Counted from the first letter of the stretch, positions 8,028 through 40,231 are shown. The stretch is 64,000 nucleotides of DNA from a virus (IMGVR_UViG_3300014205_000201); one strand, 5' to 3'. Numbers and translations are program-made. The notes: generated from the letters alone by a model not told the origin.

Positions 8028-8336
8028 TTATGACTCCCTTTGTTTGTCACCAGTTACAGCCAAACTGTCAGTTGTTGGCATGTGATCAATGAGATACTGA
8101 AATTTCTTACCCTCGCCCATTCCATACTGATAACCAATAAGGAATATTGTGTGTTCGCATAAAGCGCTCGAAGTAAGCAGTATCTTTCCAAAGTTTTCAC
8201 CTATCTTGATCTTGTCATCGTTTTCTGAAGATACAATTTTGAAAAAAGTATTTTGTAGTAAATCAAGTTTTGCTTTATCTGAACAAGCGTTTTTCTTGTT
8301 GTTATTGGCACAGCATTGGTCACACATTTTATTCAC
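8028..8336 (-). CDS. Cys-rich hypothetical protein (102 aa; CDQCC...C)
   Basis: co-directional packing. Confidence 0.45.
   Translation of the reverse strand: MNKMCDQCCANNNKKNACSDKAKLDLLQNTFFKIVSSENDDKIKIGENFGKILLTSSALCEHTIFLIGYQYGMGEGKKFQYLIDHMPTTDSLAVTGDKQRES
8047..8071. promoter_or_regulatory. IR motif copy (tcaccagttacagccaaactgtcag)
   Basis: then SD AAGGGAG and the ATG at 8025 on the minus strand. Confidence 0.55.
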
Positions 8337-8353
8337 CAGAATCTCGATAATTG

Positions 8354-8809
8354 TCAGATAGTTTCTGGCGCAGTTAATCCTTTAGTGCAGAATCCTTTGA
8401 CTATTCCAGTTGTTGTGTCTATAAGAGTAATTTTACCGAACACGGGCATGTAAGGTTTAAGACTATTAATAAATTGGCAGTAGCTAGAGTAATCCTTGTG
8501 GATAGTAATTAAAGTATGAAAATCGATTGCTTTTGCGACCATGAGGACAGCAGCATTATTTAGAAGAAATGTTTTAGCGTCTGGCACATCAGCGCGTGTA
8601 TTGGATATTTCTATGAATGCCATAAGGGGCAATCCAAGTTTTGCGAAGTTAGGTACACATTGAAAATCAAGAAGGCCCTCCTGCTCTATCTTTTCTCTTA
8701 TTCTTGTTACGGTAGGTTGTGATACGCCAGCTATTTTTGCTACTTGACGGTCACTACCTCTTGGGCATTTCATAAATGCATTATATACTTTTTGTTTGTT
8801 TCCAATCAT
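8354..8809 (-). CDS. Lrp/AsnC-family transcription regulator (HTH + RAM-like C-term)
   Basis: RGSDRQVAKIAGVSQPTVTRIREKIEQEGLL HTH; 151 aa is typical size. Confidence 0.65.
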   Translation of the reverse strand: MIGNKQKVYNAFMKCPRGSDRQVAKIAGVSQPTVTRIREKIEQEGLLDFQCVPNFAKLGLPLMAFIEISNTRADVPDAKTFLLNNAAVLMVAKAIDFHTLITIHKDYSSYCQFINSLKPYMPVFGKITLIDTTTGIVKGFCTKGLTAPETI

Positions 8810-8880
8810 TTCAGATACACCATTTGAATAGTTAGTAATGTAGTGCTAACTTGTATATATAATTAACGATAAAAAGAGAG

Positions 8881-9183
8881 TTATCGTTTAAAGAAACGAC
8901 TCTTATTCAATATTAAATACGTAACGGCAAAGGTAGCTATCGAACAACAAATAACCGATTCAACACCAACCCAAAGACCACCAACAGCAACCGTTCTAAA
9001 ATCGCTAAGTGCCACCGTCATATTATACGCAGAACCAAACGCCTGGTTGGTAATATCGAATATTGCAGTTTCAGTATAGAGAACTATAGCAAGTTGACCA
9101 ATACCCCAACCGTAACCATTTATGATTAGCAGCAGTAAACAAACGGCAACTAAATTATTCTTTAACTTAGAGTTCATCATCAT
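8881..9183 (-). CDS. small membrane protein (100 aa)
   Basis: N-terminal TM; ATGA overlap with the upstream gene. Confidence 0.45.
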   Translation of the reverse strand: MMMNSKLKNNLVAVCLLLLIINGYGWGIGQLAIVLYTETAIFDITNQAFGSAYNMTVALSDFRTVAVGGLWVGVESVICCSIATFAVTYLILNKSRFFKR

Positions 9184-9419
9184 TCACCAGTTTTGTTGTA
9201 ACTGTCAATCTTTCTTTCATGCCACCAAATATAGAAGCCTAAACTAATAGAAATAATTACAGCGCCAAAAATTATGTAAGGCAAAATTGATATAAGATTT
9301 AGTGGCCCAGGGCAACCTTGCCAAGTAGTACAGCTATACTTAGCTGGATTAAAGAAGCGGTCTATCTCTTCCCACCAAGTTAAGTTTGCTAAATGCTGAT
9401 GCCAAGCTTCACTCAACAT
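9180..9419 (-). CDS. small membrane protein (79 aa)
   Basis: TM helix; Trp-rich. Confidence 0.45.
   Translation of the reverse strand: MLSEAWHQHLANLTWWEEIDRFFNPAKYSCTTWQGCPGPLNLISILPYIIFGAVIISISLGFYIWWHERKIDSYNKTGE
9184..9208. promoter_or_regulatory. IR motif copy (tcaccagttttgttgtaactgtcaa)
   Basis: abuts the start codon at 9183. Confidence 0.5.
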
Positions 9420-10051
9420 ACATCACCAGTTTTATCATTTTGCAATCTAACAGATAGACAGTCTTTACGACCAGCAACAAAAGAATGTGTATGATAAGCT
9501 TTTACAAGACTAGTATTTTGTACACCTAATTTTAATTTACCAGGTGGATCAATCAACCATGGTTTTTCTTTTATTATTAAACCACGCATTTCATCTTCTA
9601 ATTGTAAATATAGTTTTTCCCTAAAGATCGGATCCTTGTTTTTCTGTGAACGATAATCAAGTAATTTCATCAAAACAATTGCCCTTTCTTTTTTCTGTAC
9701 TAAATAGGGAATGATCTTTGGCAAAATAATTCTTTGAGCATTAGGATAAAAACGTAAGTCATACCCGATTGCAGCAACTTCACCCTCTCGTTTAAAACGC
9801 ATTACAACAATATTTCCCAAACCACAAATCGAGTTTTTTATAAATTCAATATTATGTTTATTCATACTATTTATATTAACACGAGGCTCAAGTTCATAGC
9901 CACGATTACTGCCTTTCCATTTTTTTAGAAGCTTAGGGTTCTTATAATGTCTAAAGAGCATTATACATCCTTCACCATCGACCATTCCAGCGAGATACGC
10001 CCATGTCGTTTCTGGTATAGTTATATCGATTGCCATCACATATTCCACCAA
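9413..10051 (-). CDS. free-standing LAGLIDADG homing-endonuclease-like protein (paralog of 13729-14280)
   Basis: WAYLAGMVDGEGCIML matches the LAGLIDADG consensus; shares IILPKIIPYLVQKKE with the paralog. Confidence 0.65.
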   Translation of the reverse strand: MVEYVMAIDITIPETTWAYLAGMVDGEGCIMLFRHYKNPKLLKKWKGSNRGYELEPRVNINSMNKHNIEFIKNSICGLGNIVVMRFKREGEVAAIGYDLRFYPNAQRIILPKIIPYLVQKKERAIVLMKLLDYRSQKNKDPIFREKLYLQLEDEMRGLIIKEKPWLIDPPGKLKLGVQNTSLVKAYHTHSFVAGRKDCLSVRLQNDKTGDVC

Positions 10052-10448
10052 TTACAACTAATTGGTTATTTATGAATTAAAAGCTTGTGCTCACTAGCCA
10101 CATTATCATAACTGTCACTCATTCTAGAAATCTCTTCTCAGGATGTTTGCTATAATAATAGTAAATCCCTAAGAAAATAAAAGGCACAGCAATCATACAA
10201 ATATAGCCTATTGCTGATACAATAGGATTTGATACTAAATCTACCACTTGTTTGTAGCCTTGTAATGCTGACATAGTCACTTATTCTCCATCTTATCGTC
10301 TGCATTTAACGGTAAGGTCCAGTAGGCCAATAGCCAAATACCACCGCTATAACCATTATTGCAATACCAGACGCGAACATTAAAGTTAGGGGTACAAGAA
10401 CCACTCCGGCTGGACCTTGATATGCTTCTTTTATTTCATTCCAAAACT

Positions 10449-10721
10449 TCATTTTAATTCCTCCGATTTATCTGTATTACTTAACATTAGAAAAGTTAGG
10501 GGAAGTAAAGTACCAGAAAATATAATCCCCACAGTACATATTGGCATTAGGATAATAACCCATGCCCATTGAGTATTCATTATTTCTGGTTCTACCCAAC
10601 CAGGAGTAATGAAATTATTGTATTCGTTGAGGCCGATATAGCAATAAATTAAACCAATAATACAAAGGACTAGCCATATAGCTAGAAAGATTCTGGTGAT
10701 TGTTACTTTTCTATCTCTCAT
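10449..10721 (-). CDS. small membrane protein (90 aa, 3 TM)
   Basis: hydrophobic; SD GGAAGG. Confidence 0.45.
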   Translation of the reverse strand: MRDRKVTITRIFLAIWLVLCIIGLIYCYIGLNEYNNFITPGWVEPEIMNTQWAWVIILMPICTVGIIFSGTLLPLTFLMLSNTDKSEELK

Positions 10722-10821
10722 TGTTTATCCTTCCCTGTTGGTTTGTTTTTAAATAAATAATTATAGAAACATAAAATATCTCTATACCAGATATGAATTA
10801 ACTCCCAAAGAAATTCTTCCA

Positions 10822-11121
10822 TTAAGTTTCCCCTTCTGATTGTTTGTCTGAAACCGATAACAAACTTTTACGCAAAAACTTAGCTAAAGCCACTGGGGGA
10901 TTATACCATCTATAAGCGAGTTGGCTATGAGGTTCTAAATCTAATCCACCCCAAACTTGTTCATACCGTTCTGCTATCTGGATTTTTTTACATCTACGGC
11001 ATTGGCGTATTCCGTCTATGGAGTAATTAGTAAATGGTGTCTCATATTCAGTGTCTGGATATGTTATTGTTTGTGTATCGGTGCTTAATATATTCCAGTT
11101 TCTAAAGTGAAGGCAAAGCAT
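10822..11121 (-). CDS. zinc-ribbon protein (CRRCKK), C-terminus SVSDKQSEGET
   Basis: shares its 3' 20-bp repeat with the next gene. Confidence 0.45.
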   Translation of the reverse strand: MLCLHFRNWNILSTDTQTITYPDTEYETPFTNYSIDGIRQCRRCKKIQIAERYEQVWGGLDLEPHSQLAYRWYNPPVALAKFLRKSLLSVSDKQSEGET

Positions 11122-11123
11122 AG

Positions 11124-11399
11124 TTATTTTTCCTCTGTTTGTTTATCCGAAACCGATGGTGTTTTAAGAAGCCATAATCCTATACTCCCAAAGAACCCAA
11201 AAATGATCGGACCAAATACTAACAAGTTATGAATGTTCGTCATTGCTGTTTTGTATTCTGTCGGTGCATAGTCTGGTGCGGCTCCAAAGTTAGTTAAGTA
11301 AAGGGCGGTAAATAATACCGCTAATATCCAAGCTATTATCGTAGTAATTTTTATGGCTGTATGTTCTTCTCGTATTTTTGGTATGTTTAAAGTTTTCAT
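11124..11399 (-). CDS. small membrane protein; start taken at the internal Met (MKTLNIP). The track ORF extends to 11441.
   Basis: SD GGAGA and an IR motif precede the 11399 ATG; C-term SVSDKQTEEK. Confidence 0.45.
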   Translation of the reverse strand: MKTLNIPKIREEHTAIKITTIIAWILAVLFTALYLTNFGAAPDYAPTEYKTAMTNIHNLLVFGPIIFGFFGSIGLWLLKTPSVSDKQTEEK

Positions 11400-11749
11400 T
11401 ATCGTTTTGTCTCCATTTGTTCGTCGCCAGAATGGGTACAATTGTCAATTGTTTTTTTGCTAACTTCCTTACGAAAAGCCAACAAACAATAACATGCAAA
11501 GAAGCCCAACAAGAATGGTCGAGAAACAACATTCGTCATCAATACTAATAACCACACATTTGCCGGTTGAGTAACCGAAACAGGAGTTGTAGGAAAAGTA
11601 AAATAAGCATACAACCCAAATGCAGAGGGTATACTTATAATAACAATAGTAAAGACAAACATTCCAAGCCAAATATATTTCATATACGGTTGGATCTTTG
11701 CAAAGTTATTATCTTGCCATGCGCTTAACCGATTTTTAGAGACAGCCAT
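11399..11749 (-). CDS. small membrane protein (116 aa)
   Basis: 3 TM. Confidence 0.45.
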   Translation of the reverse strand: MAVSKNRLSAWQDNNFAKIQPYMKYIWLGMFVFTIVIISIPSAFGLYAYFTFPTTPVSVTQPANVWLLVLMTNVVSRPFLLGFFACYCLLAFRKEVSKKTIDNCTHSGDEQMETKR

Positions 11750-12042
11750 TATTTATTAACCTCATCGGTTTTTAGTTGCTGGCTAGCCGAATTAATCAGT
11801 AAATAAAGTGCTACACAAAACATGCAAACAGATAGCACAGGAACAGAAGCAGAAACGTAAATCAACATCACTAACTCTGTAGTTTCAACTGATGTACCTT
11901 GAACACCATTCCAAGTAACAATAAAGCTAGTAATCAGTATTATTGAGCATCCCAAAGCAATTGCAACTAAAATTAATTTGAGGAGATTCTTTTTATCCAA
12001 AGAAGCCATCTCCCAAAAATATATCTTGCAGATCTTTAGCAA
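11749..12042 (-). CDS. small membrane protein (97 aa)
   Basis: TM helices. Confidence 0.4.
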   Translation of the reverse strand: MLKICKIYFWEMASLDKKNLLKLILVAIALGCSIILITSFIVTWNGVQGTSVETTELVMLIYVSASVPVLSVCMFCVALYLLINSASQQLKTDEVNK

Positions 12043-12235
12043 ACTCTTTACCGGTACGTTTACCAGGTAATGTCTTCTGATATGCTAAGTCAGCTTGAGA
12101 ATTAAACAACTCAGGAAAATGTTTAGTGCCAAATGTAGAATTATATATAGCCACAATCTCTATGAAACTGTGGTCTTGTTTTTCCCAGAGTTTAATTGCT
12201 GTTATTCTAGCTTGCCGGTTAGTATCTTCACTCAT
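11993..12235 (-). CDS. hypothetical protein (80 aa)
   Basis: overlaps its neighbour; the start is uncertain. Confidence 0.35.
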   Translation of the reverse strand: MSEDTNRQARITAIKLWEKQDHSFIEIVAIYNSTFGTKHFPELFNSQADLAYQKTLPGKRTGKEFAKDLQDIFLGDGFFG

Positions 12236-12720
12236 TATTTTTCTTCCTCTTTATTACTGACTTTTGGGACACATTTGGCAGTTGATGTTACCCAAAGCTT
12301 ATTCTTGTTTTTATTCTTCATGAACTTTTCACGCATCGTAACAACAGCCTTCATATCTCGATGGATCTTAGCCCAAGACTCGTTATGGCATGCAGACGAA
12401 TTTGAACCGCTAATGTCATAATTCTTCTCATCACTAAAGCAATAGATAGAATGTTTACCCTCTGTTTCAGCCCAATGCAATGTTGCATCGCAGAACCATA
12501 TATCCCACTCAGGAAAAGTGTGGGCTTTATAATAATCTTTGAAAGGCATATTAACGAATACTTTACCACAGGTTTTGCAGAACACTAAATAGTGTTTACC
12601 CTCCATGGCTTGCTCAATTAGTTTTTCCATCTCAGGTTGCTTATTGCTAAGAATGAAAGCAGCCATCTCGTTTTGGTTAGCTCGTTTTAAGTCTGTGATT
12701 AGTTTATCTTTTGCGCTCAT
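12235..12720 (-). CDS. hypothetical protein with CxxC (161 aa)
   Basis: SD cctcc(rc) at 12731-12735 and an IR motif upstream. Confidence 0.5.
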   Translation of the reverse strand: MSAKDKLITDLKRANQNEMAAFILSNKQPEMEKLIEQAMEGKHYLVFCKTCGKVFVNMPFKDYYKAHTFPEWDIWFCDATLHWAETEGKHSIYCFSDEKNYDISGSNSSACHNESWAKIHRDMKAVVTMREKFMKNKNKNKLWVTSTAKCVPKVSNKEEEK

Positions 12721-12739
12721 TGTTTCTTTTCCTCCACAC

Positions 12740-12764
12740 TACCAGATGGATACAAACTGTCAAA
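12740..12764. promoter_or_regulatory. IR motif copy (taccagatggatacaaactgtcaaa)
   Basis: SD at 12731-12735, then the start at 12720. Confidence 0.5.
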
Positions 12765-12784
12765 TATTAAAAATGCTAAAATCA

Positions 12785-13033
12785 TTACCATTCAACCTCG
12801 ATTTTCTCAATTGTAGTAATAGCAGAAATAAAACATATTGCGCTAGGCAGAGTTAATATCAAAGCGGTTTGGTTCAATTTATCTGATAAACCTATAGAGG
12901 CTTTAGATTGAGTAAAGCCACTTCCGCTAATTGTATTATAGTCAGCAATCCAAACTGCCGAAATTGCAAGCGCTAACACTATCCCAAATAGTATCAGAGA
13001 GATACATAGTAATATCAAAGTTATTTTCTTCAT
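12785..13033 (-). CDS. small membrane protein (82 aa)
   Basis: TM; SD + IR motif upstream. Confidence 0.45.
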   Translation of the reverse strand: MKKITLILLCISLILFGIVLALAISAVWIADYNTISGSGFTQSKASIGLSDKLNQTALILTLPSAICFISAITTIEKIEVEW

Positions 13034-13347
13034 TCTTTTTTATCCTCCATACATACACTGCCAGATGTTGTGGAACTGGTGTCGTGAATGTTACTATATC
13101 TTCTATCGATGTCAGCTAATATCCAACCATATGTTTTATCAATATCACACATATTCAACGCGAAAGCTACAGTGATGCATAGGAGAGTTATAGCCAACCC
13201 AATAAAGATCAAAGTAGGTGGTGGTAGTATAACTATCGTTGGAATACTACATATCGATAATAGCCATCGGATGTTTCTACGCTTATCTAACTTTTTGGTA
13301 AGCGGATCATACAGATTGTGATATTCTTTTAATATCGTTTCAGTCAT
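13030..13347 (-). CDS. small membrane protein (105 aa)
   Basis: 2 TM. Confidence 0.45.
   Translation of the reverse strand: MTETILKEYHNLYDPLTKKLDKRRNIRWLLSICSIPTIVILPPPTLIFIGLAITLLCITVAFALNMCDIDKTYGWILADIDRRYSNIHDTSSTTSGSVCMEDKKE
13058..13084. promoter_or_regulatory. IR motif copy (ctgccagatgttgtggaactggtgtcg)
   Basis: SD at 13044-13048, then the start at 13033. Confidence 0.5.
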
Positions 13348-13351
13348 TTAT

Positions 13352-13729
13352 TTAAAACCCCCAGAAATAACTCGTTTTATATTCTAGTTCGTAGGCTAGC
13401 CCGTAGGTTTCGTTGAATATAGCGATGTATCCTTTGACGTTACTAATATATGCTTGATAAACTGGCATTTCAGTTGTAACTTGTCGTGTGAAGTAAACAT
13501 AATCGTCTGTGGTTTGAATAACTGTTGGGCTATTCACAACACCATCATAAACTGTATAGCCTTGAATTTGTAGATCGTGCTTTGCCTGAGCATTAACTGT
13601 ATCACGATTATTTGCAGTAGCATATATGCCGGCGAAAAGACCGCCGCATAATACAACAATAATAGTAATCATTGCGGCAAATATAACAAGTCCGCCGTAT
13701 TCATCCCAAAATCCCCATTCATGCCCCAT
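13352..13729 (-). CDS. small membrane protein (125 aa)
   Basis: TM helix after the N-terminal segment. Confidence 0.45.
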   Translation of the reverse strand: MGHEWGFWDEYGGLVIFAAMITIIVVLCGGLFAGIYATANNRDTVNAQAKHDLQIQGYTVYDGVVNSPTVIQTTDDYVYFTRQVTTEMPVYQAYISNVKGYIAIFNETYGLAYELEYKTSYFWGF

Positions 13730-14280
13730 TATTGTTTATCCTCCTTGCCAGTTAGCAGTATTGTTGGCACAGATTTTTTATACCATTTATAATGATTTGT
13801 TGAATGAGAAAATTTAGTACCATCCCAAATTGGTAAACGATAATATTTCCAGAATTGCTGTTTTTCTTGAGCCATCTCAAACAGAGCATAAAGTTCTTTT
13901 CTTCTCTGCTTTATATTTAAGTTATTAAGAACATGATTCGATTCTAAAAGATTAACCCATTCAAGATATATTTCAGCTATTTCCTTTTTCTGAATAAGAT
14001 AAGGAATAATATTAGGTAATATTATCTTTGCTTCATTTGAACGGAAACGTAGATAGTAAGTAAGAACTTTTCCGACTTCATGTTGCTCCTGTATCTTTCC
14101 CAACTTTAAAAGATATTGTAGGTCAAGCAAATTTTGTAGGTTCATATTTGAAATATTAAATTGACTCTCGCCACTTAAACGGTCTGTTCCGTTTATCTTG
14201 CGTTTACGTTGAGAGATATTAATACAACCCTCGCCATCAACAAAGCCAGCTAGATAAGCCCACACTGTTTCTGGTATCAT
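13729..14280 (-). CDS. free-standing LAGLIDADG homing-endonuclease-like protein (paralog of 9413-10051)
   Basis: WAYLAGFVDGEGCINIS; IILPNIIPYLIQKKE. Confidence 0.65.
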   Translation of the reverse strand: MIPETVWAYLAGFVDGEGCINISQRKRKINGTDRLSGESQFNISNMNLQNLLDLQYLLKLGKIQEQHEVGKVLTYYLRFRSNEAKIILPNIIPYLIQKKEIAEIYLEWVNLLESNHVLNNLNIKQRRKELYALFEMAQEKQQFWKYYRLPIWDGTKFSHSTNHYKWYKKSVPTILLTGKEDKQ

Positions 14281-14444
14281 TTTGTCAGCTTCCCTGAAAT
14301 AATTTGTATTTGGTCGCCAGTAATCTTTAGACTAACTTTTACACTCTTAGTCACTTTATCATAAACATAAACGAAGTGAGTATCAATTGTAGGTTCATAA
14401 TATGAGTGTAATCCTCTAAATCGTGCTTTAGTTTTGTCAGACAT
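14277..14444 (-). CDS. small protein; start taken at the ATG at 14442-14444 (MSDKTKAR). The track ORF uses a GTG at 14459.
   Basis: ATGA overlap with the LAGLIDADG gene. Confidence 0.35.
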   Translation of the reverse strand: MSDKTKARFRGLHSYYEPTIDTHFVYVYDKVTKSVKVSLKITGDQIQIISGKLTK

Positions 14445-14492
14445 TATTTGCACCCACACAATATTTGCTTATTAATGCTAATAAGGTTATCG

Positions 14493-14726
14493 CTACCTCG
14501 GCAGTGAATTGTCAGATTGTTTCGGATTAAGAAACTCTTGAGTAAAAATTCGTTTTATCGCTTCTGGCGCTTCGTGGTCTTTTACTATCGCGATATAAGC
14601 ATCAGTTAAAGCGTCTGCGGTAGCATGTGCATAAGTTGATCCATAGAAGCGATAAGCTGCTTTATAGGCTTGTTCTCGGAATTTCTCGGCTTCTTTATCA
14701 ACAAGTTTTTCCCAGTCGGCGCTCAT
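14493..14726 (-). CDS. hypothetical protein (77 aa)
   Basis: co-directional packing. Confidence 0.4.
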   Translation of the reverse strand: MSADWEKLVDKEAEKFREQAYKAAYRFYGSTYAHATADALTDAYIAIVKDHEAPEAIKRIFTQEFLNPKQSDNSLPR

Positions 14727-14998
14727 GATTCTACCTTCTTAATTGGTTTATCGTAATTGTTTAATGAATCAATAAGATCCCCAACTACGGTTGCAGCATA
14801 GACAGGGTTAGATGATATACGAACTAAGTATTCACGTTCTCCATTAAGCCACTCCACCATAGCCTCTTTGACTTCCGATTCAAAGAACAGCTTTTCTTTC
14901 TGTCTTCGTGTGAAGCATATATCTTCACTTCTGCGAAGTCGGCAGTATAGCCAACCCCTTCTATTTAGAATTGTCGTAAAGTTTGGTTCTTCGCTCAT
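14723..14998 (-). CDS. hypothetical protein (91 aa)
   Basis: 4-nt overlaps with both neighbours. Confidence 0.45.
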   Translation of the reverse strand: MSEEPNFTTILNRRGWLYCRLRRSEDICFTRRQKEKLFFESEVKEAMVEWLNGEREYLVRISSNPVYAATVVGDLIDSLNNYDKPIKKVES

Positions 14999-15462
14999 TG
15001 TGGTTTTCCCTCACCAGTTGGTGTAATTCTGTCAGTTGATGGAAATAGAGAATTGAATTGATCCTTCACTAATTCAAGTAACCCCTGGGCATGTTCGATA
15101 TTATACATCCCATCATCATTGAGCCATTTACGAAATGCCTCAACTTTATTGTCAGCCAGTTTGGGTTTCTCAAGATGATACTGCTTACTAAAGCGGTTTA
15201 CTATTTCATAACCATCTGCAAGCATCGCATCTAGATTAGGTTGCGCTCCTGTTGTTGTTAACTCATAAATGAAAACATTGCTAACTTGTTTAGGTGGAGT
15301 AACGGTAACTGGTTCGATAAACTCAGTGTATTCTTTTGATTGACAAAATGGGCAAACATAACTCTCTAATGTTGTTTCGCCTACTGCAAGACCTGAGCGA
15401 ATTTGTTTAGCTGTATGAACAAAGGTTTTCTTACATTCGTTATTTAGGCATTGATACTTCAT
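14995..15462 (-). CDS. zinc-ribbon protein (CLNNEC...CPFC), 155 aa
   Basis: two CxxC pairs; IR motif upstream. Confidence 0.5.
   Translation of the reverse strand: MKYQCLNNECKKTFVHTAKQIRSGLAVGETTLESYVCPFCQSKEYTEFIEPVTVTPPKQVSNVFIYELTTTGAQPNLDAMLADGYEIVNRFSKQYHLEKPKLADNKVEAFRKWLNDDGMYNIEHAQGLLELVKDQFNSLFPSTDRITPTGEGKPQ
15011..15036. promoter_or_regulatory. IR motif copy (tcaccagttggtgtaattctgtcagt)
   Basis: 13 nt upstream of the start at 14998. Confidence 0.55.
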
Positions 15463-15752
15463 TTCACTATCTCCTTAGCTTTATCACCAGTAAGTTCTGA
15501 ACTGTCGGTTACTACACCGTTTGAAGCAAAAACAGGATTATTCCTCTGAGAATAACCTACGATAGTAAAGATTATCCCAGCAAAGAGAAATATGCAGCCA
15601 CCGAGAAAAGATAGGTTCCCAATGTTCTGGAACCCGCTGCTAACTTGAGGATAGTCTAATGCTACCTGGAACGTTGCGAAGCTAGCGCCGAAAAGAAGCA
15701 AGCTACCAATCACCATTACGATTCCGCCAATCATTATATTATTTGTTTTCAT
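15459..15752 (-). CDS. small membrane protein (97 aa)
   Basis: 2 TM; SD GGAGG + IR motif. Confidence 0.45.
   Translation of the reverse strand: MKTNNIMIGGIVMVIGSLLLFGASFATFQVALDYPQVSSGFQNIGNLSFLGGCIFLFAGIIFTIVGYSQRNNPVFASNGVVTDSSELTGDKAKEIVK
15484..15508. promoter_or_regulatory. IR motif copy (tcaccagtaagttctgaactgtcgg)
   Basis: 22 nt upstream of the start at 15462. Confidence 0.5.
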
Positions 15753-16186
15753 TACTTTTGTTCCTCCACAGTTTTATTGCCAGTTGACAATGAAGTGGTG
15801 GCAGCATCTTTCTTTTCTTGTGCTAATGCATAAAGCTGCTTAGCGGCAGCAAAACAAGCTAATACCTGAACACCAGATAAATTAGCGTTATAACGTTTAT
15901 TAGGAACTACTCTGGCATCAGATGGACATGCTTGTTTAGCAACAGCCCATAAAAGATTCGCGGGCTTGGTTGGATCATGAATAACTGTGGTCTTATGAAT
16001 CTTCTCATTTAATCTATCCTCAACTTTCTTGTTTAAAGCCTTAAGATTCTTTTTAGGCAATTTTAGGAGTGCATCTACTTCTGGATTGCGAAGCTGTAAT
16101 CGCTTAACTAATGGGGCGATGATGTCTAGTTTTTCTTGTTGTTCGGCTTTAGATTGTTCACGGATAACTTCAAGGGCTTCAGTCAT
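15752..16186 (-). CDS. hypothetical protein (144 aa)
   Basis: co-directional packing. Confidence 0.45.
   Translation of the reverse strand: MTEALEVIREQSKAEQQEKLDIIAPLVKRLQLRNPEVDALLKLPKKNLKALNKKVEDRLNEKIHKTTVIHDPTKPANLLWAVAKQACPSDARVVPNKRYNANLSGVQVLACFAAAKQLYALAQEKKDAATTSLSTGNKTVEEQK
15778..15801. promoter_or_regulatory. IR motif variant (tgccagttgacaatgaagtggtgg)
   Basis: then SD GGAGG and the start at 15752. Confidence 0.45.
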
Positions 16187-16391
16187 TGTCGATTCTGTTC
16201 CTGTTTCTTTTTAGCTCGATAGACACGTTTGTCATCACGCCATTTTTGGCGTATTACTTGTTTAATTTGTTCAGGTGATAACTCCATATGTTAGCATCCT
16301 TTTTTGTCTAAGACCTTATTGTCCGAGACCGCATTTAAGGTTTGCTATCGCTTGCTTGATTTAAATATTAAAAACAATTATTACCATAAAA

Positions 16392-16595
16392 CTATAACTT
16401 CTTTGTAATCTTTACACGTTCACGCCATCGATGGATGTAATCCGCAAGCATATCATAAAGTTTTTTTGCAATGTTTGTGACGAATACTGTGAAGACAGTC
16501 ATGCATCCGAGAGTGGTGTAATCAATTGTTGACATGCTAATAGTATAGGACAAAATGTACTTAAAAAGATATTCAAATAAAAAAAGAGAAGTCAA
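16392..16595 (-). CDS. small membrane protein (67 aa)
   Basis: TM. Confidence 0.4.
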   Translation of the reverse strand: MTSLFLFEYLFKYILSYTISMSTIDYTTLGCMTVFTVFVTNIAKKLYDMLADYIHRWRERVKITKKL

Positions 16596-22152: not shown

Positions 22153-22947
22153 TTGTTATGGCAAGCCTTATATTTCTACTTTAACAAAACATATAATATG
22201 CCAATTATAAAAAATCAACGCATAGATGAAGTCCCAACAGAAGATTGGCTAACATACATAGACCTAGCGTCAAAAATAGATTATTCACAAGCCAAACAAA
22301 TACCTCCCTTTCAAAGATGGCTTTGTGCAGTATTAGCCATAGACTGGTTAACTGGAAAAAGAATAAATGAAATACTACGCTTAAAACGCAAAGACATTAC
22401 ATTCACAAAAAGCGATATAAAAATAAAATTTATGGTAGGAAAAAAACGAGCTAGAGGAAGCCCAATAGAATTACAACCTTACCAAAAAATAAGAACAATT
22501 GAACACAAAGCTATACCATACATAATCAGCTATTTAGATGATTATGACAAAAGATTAGAAAGCGATCCTGAAATAGCCCAATACATCAAAAATATGGGCA
22601 ACTATATTTTTCCCTGTCCATCTAAGCCCAGAACTAAAGTTGTTAAAACAAAATTTACAAATGGCAAAGGAGAACAAGAAGTTAGAGCTTATACCTATGA
22701 ACAGATAGGTGGATACATGAAAGAAGAAAACGCATTCTTCTGGCTACAAAAAATTAACAACCAGTTACCTCAAGAACGCCGGATTTACTTTCACTATGGG
22801 CGGCACTCAATTGGGTTACATATGGCATACCAAGGAAAAAGCCCGTACAAGATAGCGGAAATATTAGATGAAACAGTTGATGCTGCATTACAGTACACTA
22901 AGCATTCATCTGGTTACGATAATGATTGGCGAAATGAAAAGGAGTAA
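22153..22947 (+). CDS. tyrosine recombinase/integrase-like protein (264 aa)
   Basis: box I Arg (GKRINEILRLKRKDI); HYGRHS (HxxR); catalytic Tyr context LQYTKH. Confidence 0.55.
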   Translation: MLWQALYFYFNKTYNMPIIKNQRIDEVPTEDWLTYIDLASKIDYSQAKQIPPFQRWLCAVLAIDWLTGKRINEILRLKRKDITFTKSDIKIKFMVGKKRARGSPIELQPYQKIRTIEHKAIPYIISYLDDYDKRLESDPEIAQYIKNMGNYIFPCPSKPRTKVVKTKFTNGKGEQEVRAYTYEQIGGYMKEENAFFWLQKINNQLPQERRIYFHYGRHSIGLHMAYQGKSPYKIAEILDETVDAALQYTKHSSGYDNDWRNEKE

Positions 22948-33690: not shown

Positions 33691-34019
33691 TGCCTAACAC
33701 CTATGTTAAAGTTATCCGTGATTGGAAAGCATCCGGTGGTCCTGATGTCTATTGTCCTGTTGATGTAGCCACTGGTAAAATGTATGTGGGTTTAAGTCTT
33801 ATCGGTTTTGTTCCTAAAGGTGGGATAATTGTGGGGGAGTTTGATGAAAAGACCGATACGCTCACGTTAAATAAACCAAAAGAAACAGTGGCGGGGGTAG
33901 TTGAGAAGAGGGACAACACCCTAAGTCAAAGGGAAGGCGTGGGTTCGACTCCCATCCCCCGACCATCTTCGATTAACAATCAGAAACCAACAGTTAGTCA
34001 ACGACCACAAAATATATAA
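33687..34019 (+). CDS. hypothetical protein (110 aa); its 3' third overlaps a tRNA-like element
   Basis: SD GGAGGAT. Confidence 0.4.
   Translation: MMPNTYVKVIRDWKASGGPDVYCPVDVATGKMYVGLSLIGFVPKGGIIVGEFDEKTDTLTLNKPKETVAGVVEKRDNTLSQREGVGSTPIPRPSSINNQKPTVSQRPQNI
33891..33963 (+). tRNA. tRNA-Asp(GUC)-like 73-nt element (degenerate): full cloverleaf by standard numbering but with G1-A72 and A27-A43 mismatches and A33 instead of U33
   Basis: Acceptor GCGGGGG / CCCCCGA. D arm GTTG-AGAAGAGGGA-CAAC. Anticodon arm CCCT-AAGTCAA-AGGG. T arm GTGGG-TTCGACT-CCCAT. Discriminator C then CA. Confidence 0.3.
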
Positions 34020-38439: not shown

Positions 38440-38694
38440 TTATTTTCCTCCATGAGTTGCCAGTTCATTGGGAACTGGTGGATAACTTAGGTTAGATCGT
38501 TCTTTTCCCTGTTCTTCAGAATAGATATTTACGTAACCTTCATCAAAGACAGCTAGTATGTAGGTTGCTTGCGATTCCGTTATGGCTTTGTTCATGTTTT
38601 CATTTAAGAGTTTTATTAGGGCTTCTCTTGATTTGTCTGCAAATTCTTTGGTGCTGAATGCCCGTATTACTCCTGCGTTAAAGGTCATTGCCAT
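38440..38694 (-). CDS. hypothetical protein (84 aa)
   Basis: its C-terminal codons contain an IR motif. Confidence 0.45.
   Translation of the reverse strand: MAMTFNAGVIRAFSTKEFADKSREALIKLLNENMNKAITESQATYILAVFDEGYVNIYSEEQGKERSNLSYPPVPNELATHGGK
38458..38481. promoter_or_regulatory. IR motif copy, near-perfect palindrome (ttgccagttcattgggaactggtgg)
   Basis: CCAGTT-N7-AACTGG. Confidence 0.55.
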
Positions 38695-39310: not shown

Positions 39311-39660
39311 GTATTGACCTTCTTAAGTAGTTTATAGAATGGAATTTCGTCTAAGGTATGGTATCTTGAATTTATTTCTCCAAAGTTTTCTGCTAGAAGT
39401 TCTTTAATTTGTTGGTGTGATAATTTGTGATAAACTTCTTTTAGATTTAATTCTCTTATTACATATGCCCCTTCATTACATGTTGGGCAACGATAGAGAT
39501 TTCTATCTTTGTTAAGACATAGGCAAGCACCATGTTCTTTGCAAGTTACTTTATTATTTTCTGTCCAGAAGATTTTGCCAGTTGAAACTGATGTTAGGCC
39601 ATTTTTCACTATTGGATTGAATTTTGGCATGTCTTTTATATCAATTAGTTTATAGTTCAT
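39307..39660 (-). CDS. zinc-ribbon protein (CKEHGACLCL...CPTC); start at the internal Met MNYKLID with SD GGAGAG
   Basis: the track ORF 39307-39723 would overlap the HNH gene by 74 nt. Confidence 0.45.
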   Translation of the reverse strand: MNYKLIDIKDMPKFNPIVKNGLTSVSTGKIFWTENNKVTCKEHGACLCLNKDRNLYRCPTCNEGAYVIRELNLKEVYHKLSHQQIKELLAENFGEINSRYHTLDEIPFYKLLKKVNT

Positions 39661-40231
39661 TTTTATTCTCTCCTGCCAAATTATTTTTATCAGTATGTTC
39701 CCATCTATTACATGACCGCCCATTTATGGATACTTTGAATCTACCACAAGATGGCCAAATCTTTTTACAGCTATCACAATGCCTATTTGCGAAGTAGGAT
39801 ACAACATCTTTTGGGGTTCCCTTTGGTATATTATCTCTATGCCATAAACCATGGCACTTTCTACAAAGGGTTGTTACTGTGAGTGGTTTGGTATAGTCAT
39901 CATGATGCCTAACTAGGTTCTCTGTTGCACCACATTTTTCGCATTTATCTTTTAGTGATGTAAATGTATAGGCATATCTTTGTGCTTTAAAATGATCCAT
40001 GTTGTTTGATCGCCATTTATAATATGATTTGGCGTAAGCGTCAGCGTGCTCTTGTCTGTATTGTCTTGCTTTCTTATGGTCTGCTTCTTTTTGGTCGGGA
40101 GTTTTTGCATCATTTTTTGCTCTTCTTTTTAAATTTCGCTTATGATTATAATCTGGATCTATCAGCATTTGTTTATGGCGATATTTTGTTGAGGCGCTGG
40201 TCATTATGTTAATGCCTCGCATTTTAAGCAT
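39650..40231 (-). CDS. HNH endonuclease (third paralog)
   Basis: CEKCGATENLVRHHDDYTKPLTVTTLCRKCHGLWH. Confidence 0.6.
   Translation of the reverse strand: MLKMRGINIMTSASTKYRHKQMLIDPDYNHKRNLKRRAKNDAKTPDQKEADHKKARQYRQEHADAYAKSYYKWRSNNMDHFKAQRYAYTFTSLKDKCEKCGATENLVRHHDDYTKPLTVTTLCRKCHGLWHRDNIPKGTPKDVVSYFANRHCDSCKKIWPSCGRFKVSINGRSCNRWEHTDKNNLAGENKNEL

Follow-up and report, generated by a model that had tools for sequence, protein, structure and literature searches.

Two free-standing single-domain LAGLIDADG genes, probably acquired independently and spread by intronless homing, in an uncharted virus- or plasmid-like element of 87 kb

A stretch of 64,000 nucleotides from the virus IMGVR_UViG_3300014205_000201 (hereafter the window), which is part of an 87-kb contig from a Joint Genome Institute (JGI) metagenome, contains two open reading frames (ORFs), ORF1 and ORF2, that encode members of the LAGLIDADG superfamily. 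By motif, profile score and fold, both proteins belong to its single-domain, I-CreI-like subclass. We think it likely that the two are free-standing homing-endonuclease genes (HEGs) of the I-CreI/I-MsoI type that were acquired independently by an uncharted 87-kb element and that spread by intronless homing, the mode of the seg and mob genes of phage T4. The initial annotation, made from the sequence alone, had described them as paralogous free-standing LAGLIDADG genes among small membrane-protein genes. The ORF list and the sequence place both on the minus strand at the positions it gave (Table 1), and the shared peptides that it quoted, TTWAYLAGMVDGEGCI and TVWAYLAGFVDGEGCI on the one hand and IILPKIIPYLVQKKE and IILPNIIPYLIQKKE on the other, are found in the translations.

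ORF1 and ORF2 are 39% identical over 122 aa (BLASTP, E 2e-21), and the sole substantial DNA repeat in the region 8800-15000 is an 80-nt stretch with 70% identity over both LAGLIDADG motifs. ORF2 exceeds the gathering cutoffs of two Pfam families, LAGLIDADG_1 (PF00961, 41 bits, cutoff 23.1) and LAGLIDADG_3 (PF14528, 23.8 bits, cutoff 22.5), while a close relative of ORF1, P0007, carries a precomputed PF00961 match. Sequence matches in the PDB include I-MsoI for ORF1 (E 2e-6, with I-CvuI just marginal) and I-MsoI, I-CvuI, I-CreI, I-CeuI and the archaeal I-Vdi141I for ORF2, whose match to I-MsoI has an E value of 4e-10 for the tandem construct 3fd2 and about 3e-4 for single I-MsoI chains. Both ORFs match phrog_5046 (E 8e-9 for ORF1 and 3.5e-14 for ORF2), a phage LAGLIDADG family that is mislabelled 'HNH', as well as the generic HEase models of PADLOC (E 6e-5 for ORF1). 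PADLOC returned nothing beyond these generic models and placed neither the HEGs nor their neighbours in a defence system, and NCBIfam gave no model for either ORF. The LAGLIDADG assignment in the initial annotation is thus borne out by Pfam, by PDB sequence matches, by the predicted folds and by the conserved catalytic Glu and Lys residues described below, and profile searches did not lead to a non-nuclease family, ORF2 passing both PF00961 and PF14528. The same is true of the single LAGLIDADG motif proposed for each protein: one stretch per protein is matched by Pfam, the proteins are 183 and 207 aa long, each model contains one core, and the structures that match best are those of single-domain, homodimeric enzymes.

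AlphaFold2 monomer models, built on a 96-sequence alignment, reached a predicted local distance difference test (pLDDT) score of 87.4 for ORF2 and 83.9 for ORF1, with values above 90 across most of the core. In each model, C-terminal helices follow a single alpha-beta-beta-alpha-beta-beta-alpha core. The predicted elements of ORF2 are H4-17, E18-29, E32-45, H48-58, E62-66, E74-79 and H81-94, and ORF1 is predicted to have equivalent ones. In Foldseek comparisons with the PDB, at least the top 40 matches were all LAGLIDADG enzymes for the models of both ORFs. ORF1 matched I-MsoI and I-CreI (E 5e-9, template-modelling (TM) score 0.70-0.73), and ORF2 matched I-MsoI, I-CvuI, I-CreI and I-Vdi141I; over both ORFs, E values ranged from 5e-9 to 6e-8, and TM scores reached up to 0.73 for I-MsoI and I-CreI.

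The active site is retained as well. In an alignment with I-CreI, the catalytic Asp20 of I-CreI corresponds to Glu22 in ORF1, to Glu17 in ORF2 and to Glu in every close relative; the motif Glu of ORF2 also aligns with the motif Asp of I-MsoI. Equivalents of I-CreI G19 and K98 are present in ORF1, in ORF2 and in all seven of the ORF1-clade relatives compared, and P0015, a relative of ORF2, deviates at both positions. The subfamily alignment shows no variation at the motif Asp and Glu and hardly any at the K98 equivalent, and the ORF1 clade does not vary at Asp20, Gly21, Glu22, Gly23 and Lys115. ORF1 and ORF2 thus each encode an intact LAGLIDADG enzyme with a single motif. From the characterised single-motif enzymes, all of which need two active sites, we infer that the two proteins dimerise and that they cleave DNA and home. 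The beta-hairpin regions of the two proteins differ strongly in length and sequence, and therefore the two enzymes most likely recognise different targets.

An exhaustive profile search yielded 3272 relatives of ORF1 and ORF2, eight of them at E<=1e-30. The close relatives, together with copies recovered from their loci, form a distinct subfamily, a clade of its own that has so far been seen in uncultured elements only; some twelve of the members recovered are full length, and for several of these the genomic junctions are precisely defined. In a bootstrapped neighbour-joining tree, an ORF1-type clade that includes ORF1 and is marked by an invariant C-terminal KPWL motif received 100% support. 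ORF2 falls outside this clade and pairs with P0015 at 84% bootstrap; in an earlier, unbootstrapped tree it also groups with a pseudogene on contig L015. Because ORF1 and ORF2 lie in different sub-lineages, they do not stem from a recent duplication, and the tree indicates that they are probably separate acquisitions rather than products of duplication within the genome. The term 'paralogous' in the initial annotation thus holds in the distant sense of homology but probably not in the sense of in-genome duplicates.

The pseudogene (L015 7965..8491) lies on a 126-kb contig of the Bathyarchaeia metagenome-assembled genome (MAG) SPRUCE 602, where an HEG of the ORF2 lineage is frameshifted into ORFs of 88 aa and 80 aa and is a decayed copy. 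P0015 itself is intact and is located directly downstream of a type I restriction-modification operon (hsdM-hsdS-hsdR) in L109 and L110.

The positions of these genes vary among related elements, by which we mean contigs that carry subfamily HEGs and also have other genes in common with the window. Five related element lineages carry subfamily members, with up to three copies in 7 kb, and there are at least five sites other than those of ORF1 and ORF2. Wherever the homologous genes could be compared, the window has no HEG beside them. In L011, the HEG begins 6 nt past the stop codon of an integrase homolog (55% identical), and in the window the next gene follows 5 nt after the integrase gene, with no HEG. 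In L012, three HEGs lie within 6.9 kb beside homologs of the window genes at 41.5, 45.4 and 47.7 kb, none of which adjoins an HEG in the window. In L005, which has at least five genes in common with the window (one at 63% identity), the HEG adjoins a methyltransferase-like gene, and the window site is not comparable.

Two further relatives have HEGs at the very sites occupied in the window. In L009, the homolog of the 55-aa gene upstream of ORF2 has 71% identity and is directly followed, again with an overlap of 4 nt, by an HEG that belongs to the ORF1-type clade, where it groups with L012_c (100% bootstrap). No homolog of the window's 125-aa gene was found at the L009 position downstream of this HEG. 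In L112, the homolog of the 79-aa gene, at 53% identity, is directly preceded, with a 4-nt overlap, by an HEG that is 48-53% identical to ORF1 and that has a 67-nt spacer upstream, compared with 82 nt in the window. The subfamily, then, is not universally present at fixed positions but occurs at different sites in related elements. As for the presence/absence polymorphism suggested in the initial annotation as a check, the positions of the subfamily do vary among relatives, but an empty allele was not seen at the site of ORF1 or ORF2.

A sharp mosaic breakpoint was also observed beside an HEG. L012 (777/778), L013 (1215) and L014 (788) are 99.98-100% identical for more than 4 kb, starting 67 nt upstream of the HEG P0009, and are unrelated before the breakpoint, where the upstream genes differ (113, 65 and 76 aa). 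Several lineages and sites, a slot taken by different lineages, a decayed copy, mosaic boundaries and a second class of HEG together make up the usual signature of free-standing HEGs.

If ORF1 and ORF2 act as their characterised relatives do, each would form a homodimer through its N-terminal LAGLIDADG helix and thereby two active sites, in each of which the Glu at the end of the motif would bind Mg2+. DNA recognition would fall to the four-stranded beta-sheets, on a pseudo-palindromic site of some 20-22 bp, and the dimer would introduce a staggered double-strand break with 4-nt 3' overhangs into a co-resident related genome that lacks the HEG. Recombinational repair from the HEG-bearing genome would then copy the HEG and its flanking markers into the cut genome. 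The carrier genome would be protected, its own site being interrupted or diverged.

Carriage by an intein or a self-splicing intron, with the flanking ORFs as extein or exon halves of one gene, would agree with the fact that most characterised I-CreI-type enzymes (I-CreI, I-MsoI, I-CeuI, I-Vdi141I) are intron-encoded. Both forms were considered and rejected. ORF1 and ORF2 have their own start and stop codons and are out of frame with their neighbours on both sides (overlaps of 4, 1 and 7 nt). An intein is excluded because the neighbours sit in other frames; in addition, proteins of 183 and 207 aa leave no room for Hint or splicing blocks, the models consist of the nuclease domain and short helices, and no Hint or intein Pfam match was found in either ORF. 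As for an intron, Rfam revealed no intron or other RNA family in 8800-15000 at a permissive E<=1, group I and group II introns included, and a scan of the whole window at gathering thresholds gave no intron RNA and a single match, a transfer RNA (tRNA). Moreover, the flanking proteins are unrelated to one another and are encoded by separate genes in L009 and L112 too. The statement in the initial annotation that the genes are neither inteins nor intron-borne is in line with these frame-shifted junctions and scans, and we regard such carriage as extremely improbable. Degenerate relics that have kept the fold and lost the activity, or that survive in a maturase-like or structural role, also seem improbable to us, if somewhat less so. 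The life cycle of HEGs predicts decay after fixation, as exemplified by the frameshifted L015 copy, and both the sub-cutoff Pfam score of ORF1 and the divergent C-terminal region of ORF2, which is modelled with low confidence, could be read in this way. However, both ORFs are full length with no frameshift or internal stop, the motif Gly residues, the catalytic Glu and the K98 equivalent are conserved, the cores are modelled confidently (pLDDT above 90 over most of their length), and there is no intron for a maturase to serve.

Domestication or fixation, in which ORF1 and ORF2 are inherited vertically at fixed positions and serve the element instead of homing selfishly, is unlikely in our judgement but deserves more serious attention. 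Possible roles include the degradation of host or competitor DNA, the start of recombination-dependent replication and DNA-binding regulation. Several observations weigh against homing, and most of them favour this explanation. An allele without the HEG was found for neither the exact ORF1 site nor the exact ORF2 site. Homologs of the flanking genes occur solely in the element itself and in L009 (ORF2 site) or L112 (ORF1 site), and wherever either site is recognisable it contains an HEG. The five contigs carrying the exact ORF1 and ORF2 proteins are all one element. The divergence between ORF1 and the L112 HEG is about equal to that of the adjacent 79-aa gene, and therefore long vertical co-inheritance fits as well as recent homing. 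To these may be added, with regard to the enzymes themselves, that ORF2 is without the C-terminal KPWL motif and that ORF1 scores 17.8 bits with LAGLIDADG_1, under the gathering cutoff of 23.1; despite this score, ORF1 is placed in the family because of its tie to ORF2 (E 2e-21), its match to I-MsoI (E 2e-6) and the PF00961 match of P0007. The searches for further alleles returned little: an exact look-up of the immediate neighbours (125 aa and 79 aa) retrieved the same element alone on five contigs, word-indexed homolog searches with ORF2, a 151-aa helix-turn-helix (HTH) anchor and the 55-aa gene found almost nothing beyond the element itself, IMG/VR single-protein scans with ORF2 and a 155-aa neighbour gave no match, and neither did a metagenome scan with the 151-aa HTH anchor. 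Both genes are also intact and tightly coupled to their neighbours through ATGA and TAATG overlaps, although such stop/start packing is also usual for free-standing HEGs of phages and so counts against domestication. Further evidence opposes it. L009 holds a different lineage at the ORF2 site, not an ortholog (100% and 84% bootstrap), the subfamily occupies at least five other positions in relatives at which the window has no HEG, and a decayed copy is known from L015. The catalytic Glu and Lys are kept, so a purely DNA-binding role is not indicated.

The interpretation of ORF1 and ORF2 as independently acquired, intronlessly homing genes can be extended, albeit tentatively and with rather low confidence, to a lineage-specific radiation of stand-alone I-CreI-type HEGs that turn over, re-invade the same slots with different lineages, as at the ORF2 site in the window and L009, and, through the breaks they make, drive the sharp mosaic boundaries and the cassette shuffling of the small membrane-protein arrays in an unexplored family of elements that is possibly archaeal and Bathyarchaeia-associated. 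More speculatively, the co-resident paralogs, whose helices are nearly identical (TWAYLAGMVDGEG and VWAYLAGFVDGEG), might heterodimerise and cut asymmetric sites; if true, this would widen the range of targets.

Table 1. Positions in the window of ORF1, ORF2, their flanking features and a third nuclease gene
Feature	Position	Strand	Remarks
ORF1, single-domain LAGLIDADG HEG	9413..10036	minus	207 aa; 'KPWL' sub-lineage
ORF1 with alternative TTG start at 10051	9413..10051	minus	212 aa
ORF1 LAGLIDADG motif (L15-G23, LAGMVDGEG)	9968..9994	minus	Read from sequence
82-nt A+T-rich intergenic spacer upstream of ORF1	10037..10118	minus	Contains TTTTAATTCATAAATA and GGTGGA box
79-aa membrane-protein gene directly downstream of ORF1	9180..9419	minus	3' junction of ORF1 site
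ORF2, single-domain LAGLIDADG HEG	13729..14280	minus	183 aa
ORF2 LAGLIDADG motif (L10-G18, LAGFVDGEG)	14227..14253	minus	Read from sequence
55-aa gene directly upstream of ORF2	14277..14444	minus	5' junction of ORF2 insertion site
125-aa gene directly downstream of ORF2	13352..13729	minus	One hydrophobic segment (sequence, hydrophobicity)
Third free-standing nuclease gene, 317 aa	3687..4640	minus	Four NUMOD3 repeats and Vsr-like PD-(D/E)xK domain

The genes around ORF1 and ORF2 are small, mostly encode membrane proteins and form with them a long array on one strand. Nine of the 12 genes between the two encode at least one hydrophobic segment of 19 residues (one or two each), so that the earlier description 'among small membrane-protein genes' is a fair one. 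At the 5' end of ORF2, the TGA stop of the 55-aa gene overlaps the ATG by 4 nt (ATGA), and at its 3' end the TAA stop overlaps the ATG of the 125-aa gene by 1 nt (TAATG). The 3' end of ORF2 also contains the GGAGG box of the 125-aa gene, which belongs to a repeat family (D2) of GGAGG-spacer-ATG boxes. Similarly, the final 7 nt of ORF1 overlap the start of the 79-aa gene (ATGTTGA). For ORF1, the ATG at 10036 is the start chosen by the JGI gene caller and is preceded 7 nt upstream by GGTGGA, a Shine-Dalgarno-like box; this start is more likely than the TTG at 10051. The spacer upstream may hold expression signals of ORF1's own, such as a putative promoter; a sigma-70 promoter scan found 25 sites where 24.9 were expected and hence no enrichment, under a model that may not apply to the host. 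Third-position GC content is 0.21-0.25 in the three nuclease genes of the window, among the lowest of the array, and is also low (0.23) in the neighbouring 55-aa gene. A profile scan of all six frames, stop to stop, found no third LAGLIDADG copy in the window; the stretch 38443..38694, which scored 11 bits and is without the motif glycines, was dismissed as noise.

The third nuclease gene has its best PDB match to 3r3p, 'Mobile intron protein' (E 8.4e-5), which we take to be the catalytic domain of I-Bth0305I, and it also has a PADLOC HEase match. This gene shows a clean presence/absence difference, being missing in both L009 and L112: in L009, a 73-aa gene is followed after 35 nt by a glycosyltransferase gene, and in L112 a 189-aa gene abuts the glycosyltransferase gene directly. 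A 193-aa ORF at 39650..40231 (minus strand) contains the HNH-like pattern CEKCG...RHHDDY...CRKCHGLWH, with no Pfam match at E<=0.01, and may on the strength of this pattern be a fourth stand-alone nuclease gene.

Other signs of mosaicism are found near ORF1. Window positions 8325..8878 and L009 5223..5777 form an island of 95% nucleotide identity, which covers the gene for the Lrp-like 151-aa HTH protein (97.5% amino-acid identity), and the remaining synteny between the window and L009 is just 70-72% identical. The island borders a variable block that contains ORF1 in the window and a gene for a CoiA-type nuclease in L009 (4474-5187). The pattern points to recent recombination beside a hot spot that carries nuclease genes. 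In addition, a 24-nt direct repeat with 88% identity (10835..10858 and 11134..11157) encodes the C-terminal tail SVSDKQ(S/T)E on two adjacent, otherwise dissimilar genes (10822..11121 and 11124..11399); it may be a scar left by cassette shuffling, or else a signal for sorting or processing that the two proteins have in common.

The host element is uncharted and virus- or plasmid-like. Five contigs carry the same element, and a comparison of one of them, L002, with the window gave 100% identity. Region 8500-16400 had no nucleotide match among 50,697 phage records, tblastn of three large window proteins against the phage records gave none either, and the largest proteins (783, 426 and 392 aa, and an ORF that is cut by the start of the window and exceeds 1016 aa) had no match in Pfam, PHROG or the phage database. 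The few genes that could be annotated encode a tyrosine integrase (22153..22947), a DnaA/AAA+-like protein, an Ssb/RPA-like OB protein, a prepilin-peptidase-like protein, a Band 7 protein, an RNA ligase, glycosyltransferases and the Lrp-like HTH protein. The tRNA, a tRNA-Asp(GTC) at 33891..33964 on the plus strand, has an unusually low Rfam score (31 bits, gathering score 29); it may be a tRNA of the element that has diverged, or what is left of an att site connected with the integrase. More distant LAGLIDADG relatives were seen on giant viral contigs of IMG/VR from the same JGI sample (L094 and L095; 269 and 364 kb).

The initial annotation regarded free-standing LAGLIDADG genes as a useful hint to the domain of the host, but this hint proved weak. 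A scan for the subfamily motif in one genome per prokaryotic species gave 77 loci, mostly in bacterial MAGs (Acidimicrobiia, Gammaproteobacteria, Patescibacteria, Chloroflexota and others), with the remaining loci in Bathyarchaeia, Jordarchaeia and Thermoplasmata. The wider family therefore occurs in dozens of bacterial MAGs and, weakly, in phages of Caulobacter and Streptomyces. By far the best genome match is the Bathyarchaeia MAG contig L015; however, L015 and the window have only the HEG in common, and there is therefore no direct host link. An archaeal host is plausible in view of this best match, the RPA/Ssb-like OB protein and the TrmB- and AsnC-type regulators that are found in the context of P0015; the HEG finding alone does not identify the host domain.

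With these genes, the compact single-domain LAGLIDADG enzymes gain a well-defined clade that had not been annotated before and that could be mined for meganuclease scaffolds of new specificity; in practical terms the value is modest, and the understanding of how LAGLIDADG enzymes work is unchanged. The genes also show that HEGs of at least two classes, LAGLIDADG and Vsr-like with NUMOD3, have heavily colonised an element family in which hardly any gene can be recognised. Because its HEGs adjoin mosaic breakpoints, the family is a candidate system for HEG-driven recombination outside the T4 paradigm. The published literature that was searched contained no description of this clade and no account of archaeal viruses with free-standing LAGLIDADG genes.

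Organelle genomes are known to contain free-standing LAGLIDADG ORFs, and a few phages have such ORFs annotated. Stand-alone genes of this kind occur in Streptomyces phage Sushi23 ('LAGLIDADG endonuclease') and in Caulobacter phiCbK-like phages such as CcrRogue (labelled 'HNH'). These phage homologs are weak matches with about 30% identity over the N-terminal 110-120 residues, and tblastn with ORF2 gave no match in the phage collection. In their arrangement, ORF1 and ORF2 resemble the seg and mob genes of T4, which are likewise stand-alone ORFs between unrelated same-strand genes with minimal intergenic space, vary in position among related genomes and occur alongside several unrelated nuclease genes per genome. 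The enzyme classes differ, since seg proteins are GIY-YIG and mob proteins are HNH endonucleases while ORF1 and ORF2 are LAGLIDADG.

The closest characterised counterparts of the proteins are I-CreI, I-MsoI, I-CeuI, I-CvuI and the archaeal I-Vdi141I, which like ORF1 and ORF2 have a single domain of ~150-210 aa and the same fold (TM 0.6-0.73). The motif (L/I)AG(F/M)(V/L)DG(D/E)G and the K98 equivalent of the I-CreI group are kept in both ORFs. Sequence identity to I-CreI-type enzymes is just ~15-24%, and the catalytic acid is Glu in ORF1 and ORF2 in place of the Asp of I-CreI; I-CeuI also uses Glu as its catalytic acid. Compared with the I-CreI type, ORF1 has a longer beta1-beta2 hairpin, and the ORF1 clade adds a C-terminal helix, the invariant KPWL and a basic tail. 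Whereas I-CreI, I-MsoI, I-CeuI and I-CvuI reside in group I introns of green-algal chloroplast rRNA genes, ORF1 and ORF2 stand alone in a mobile element, and from the likeness in fold and active site they would be expected to work in the same way, as homodimers on a pseudo-palindromic site.

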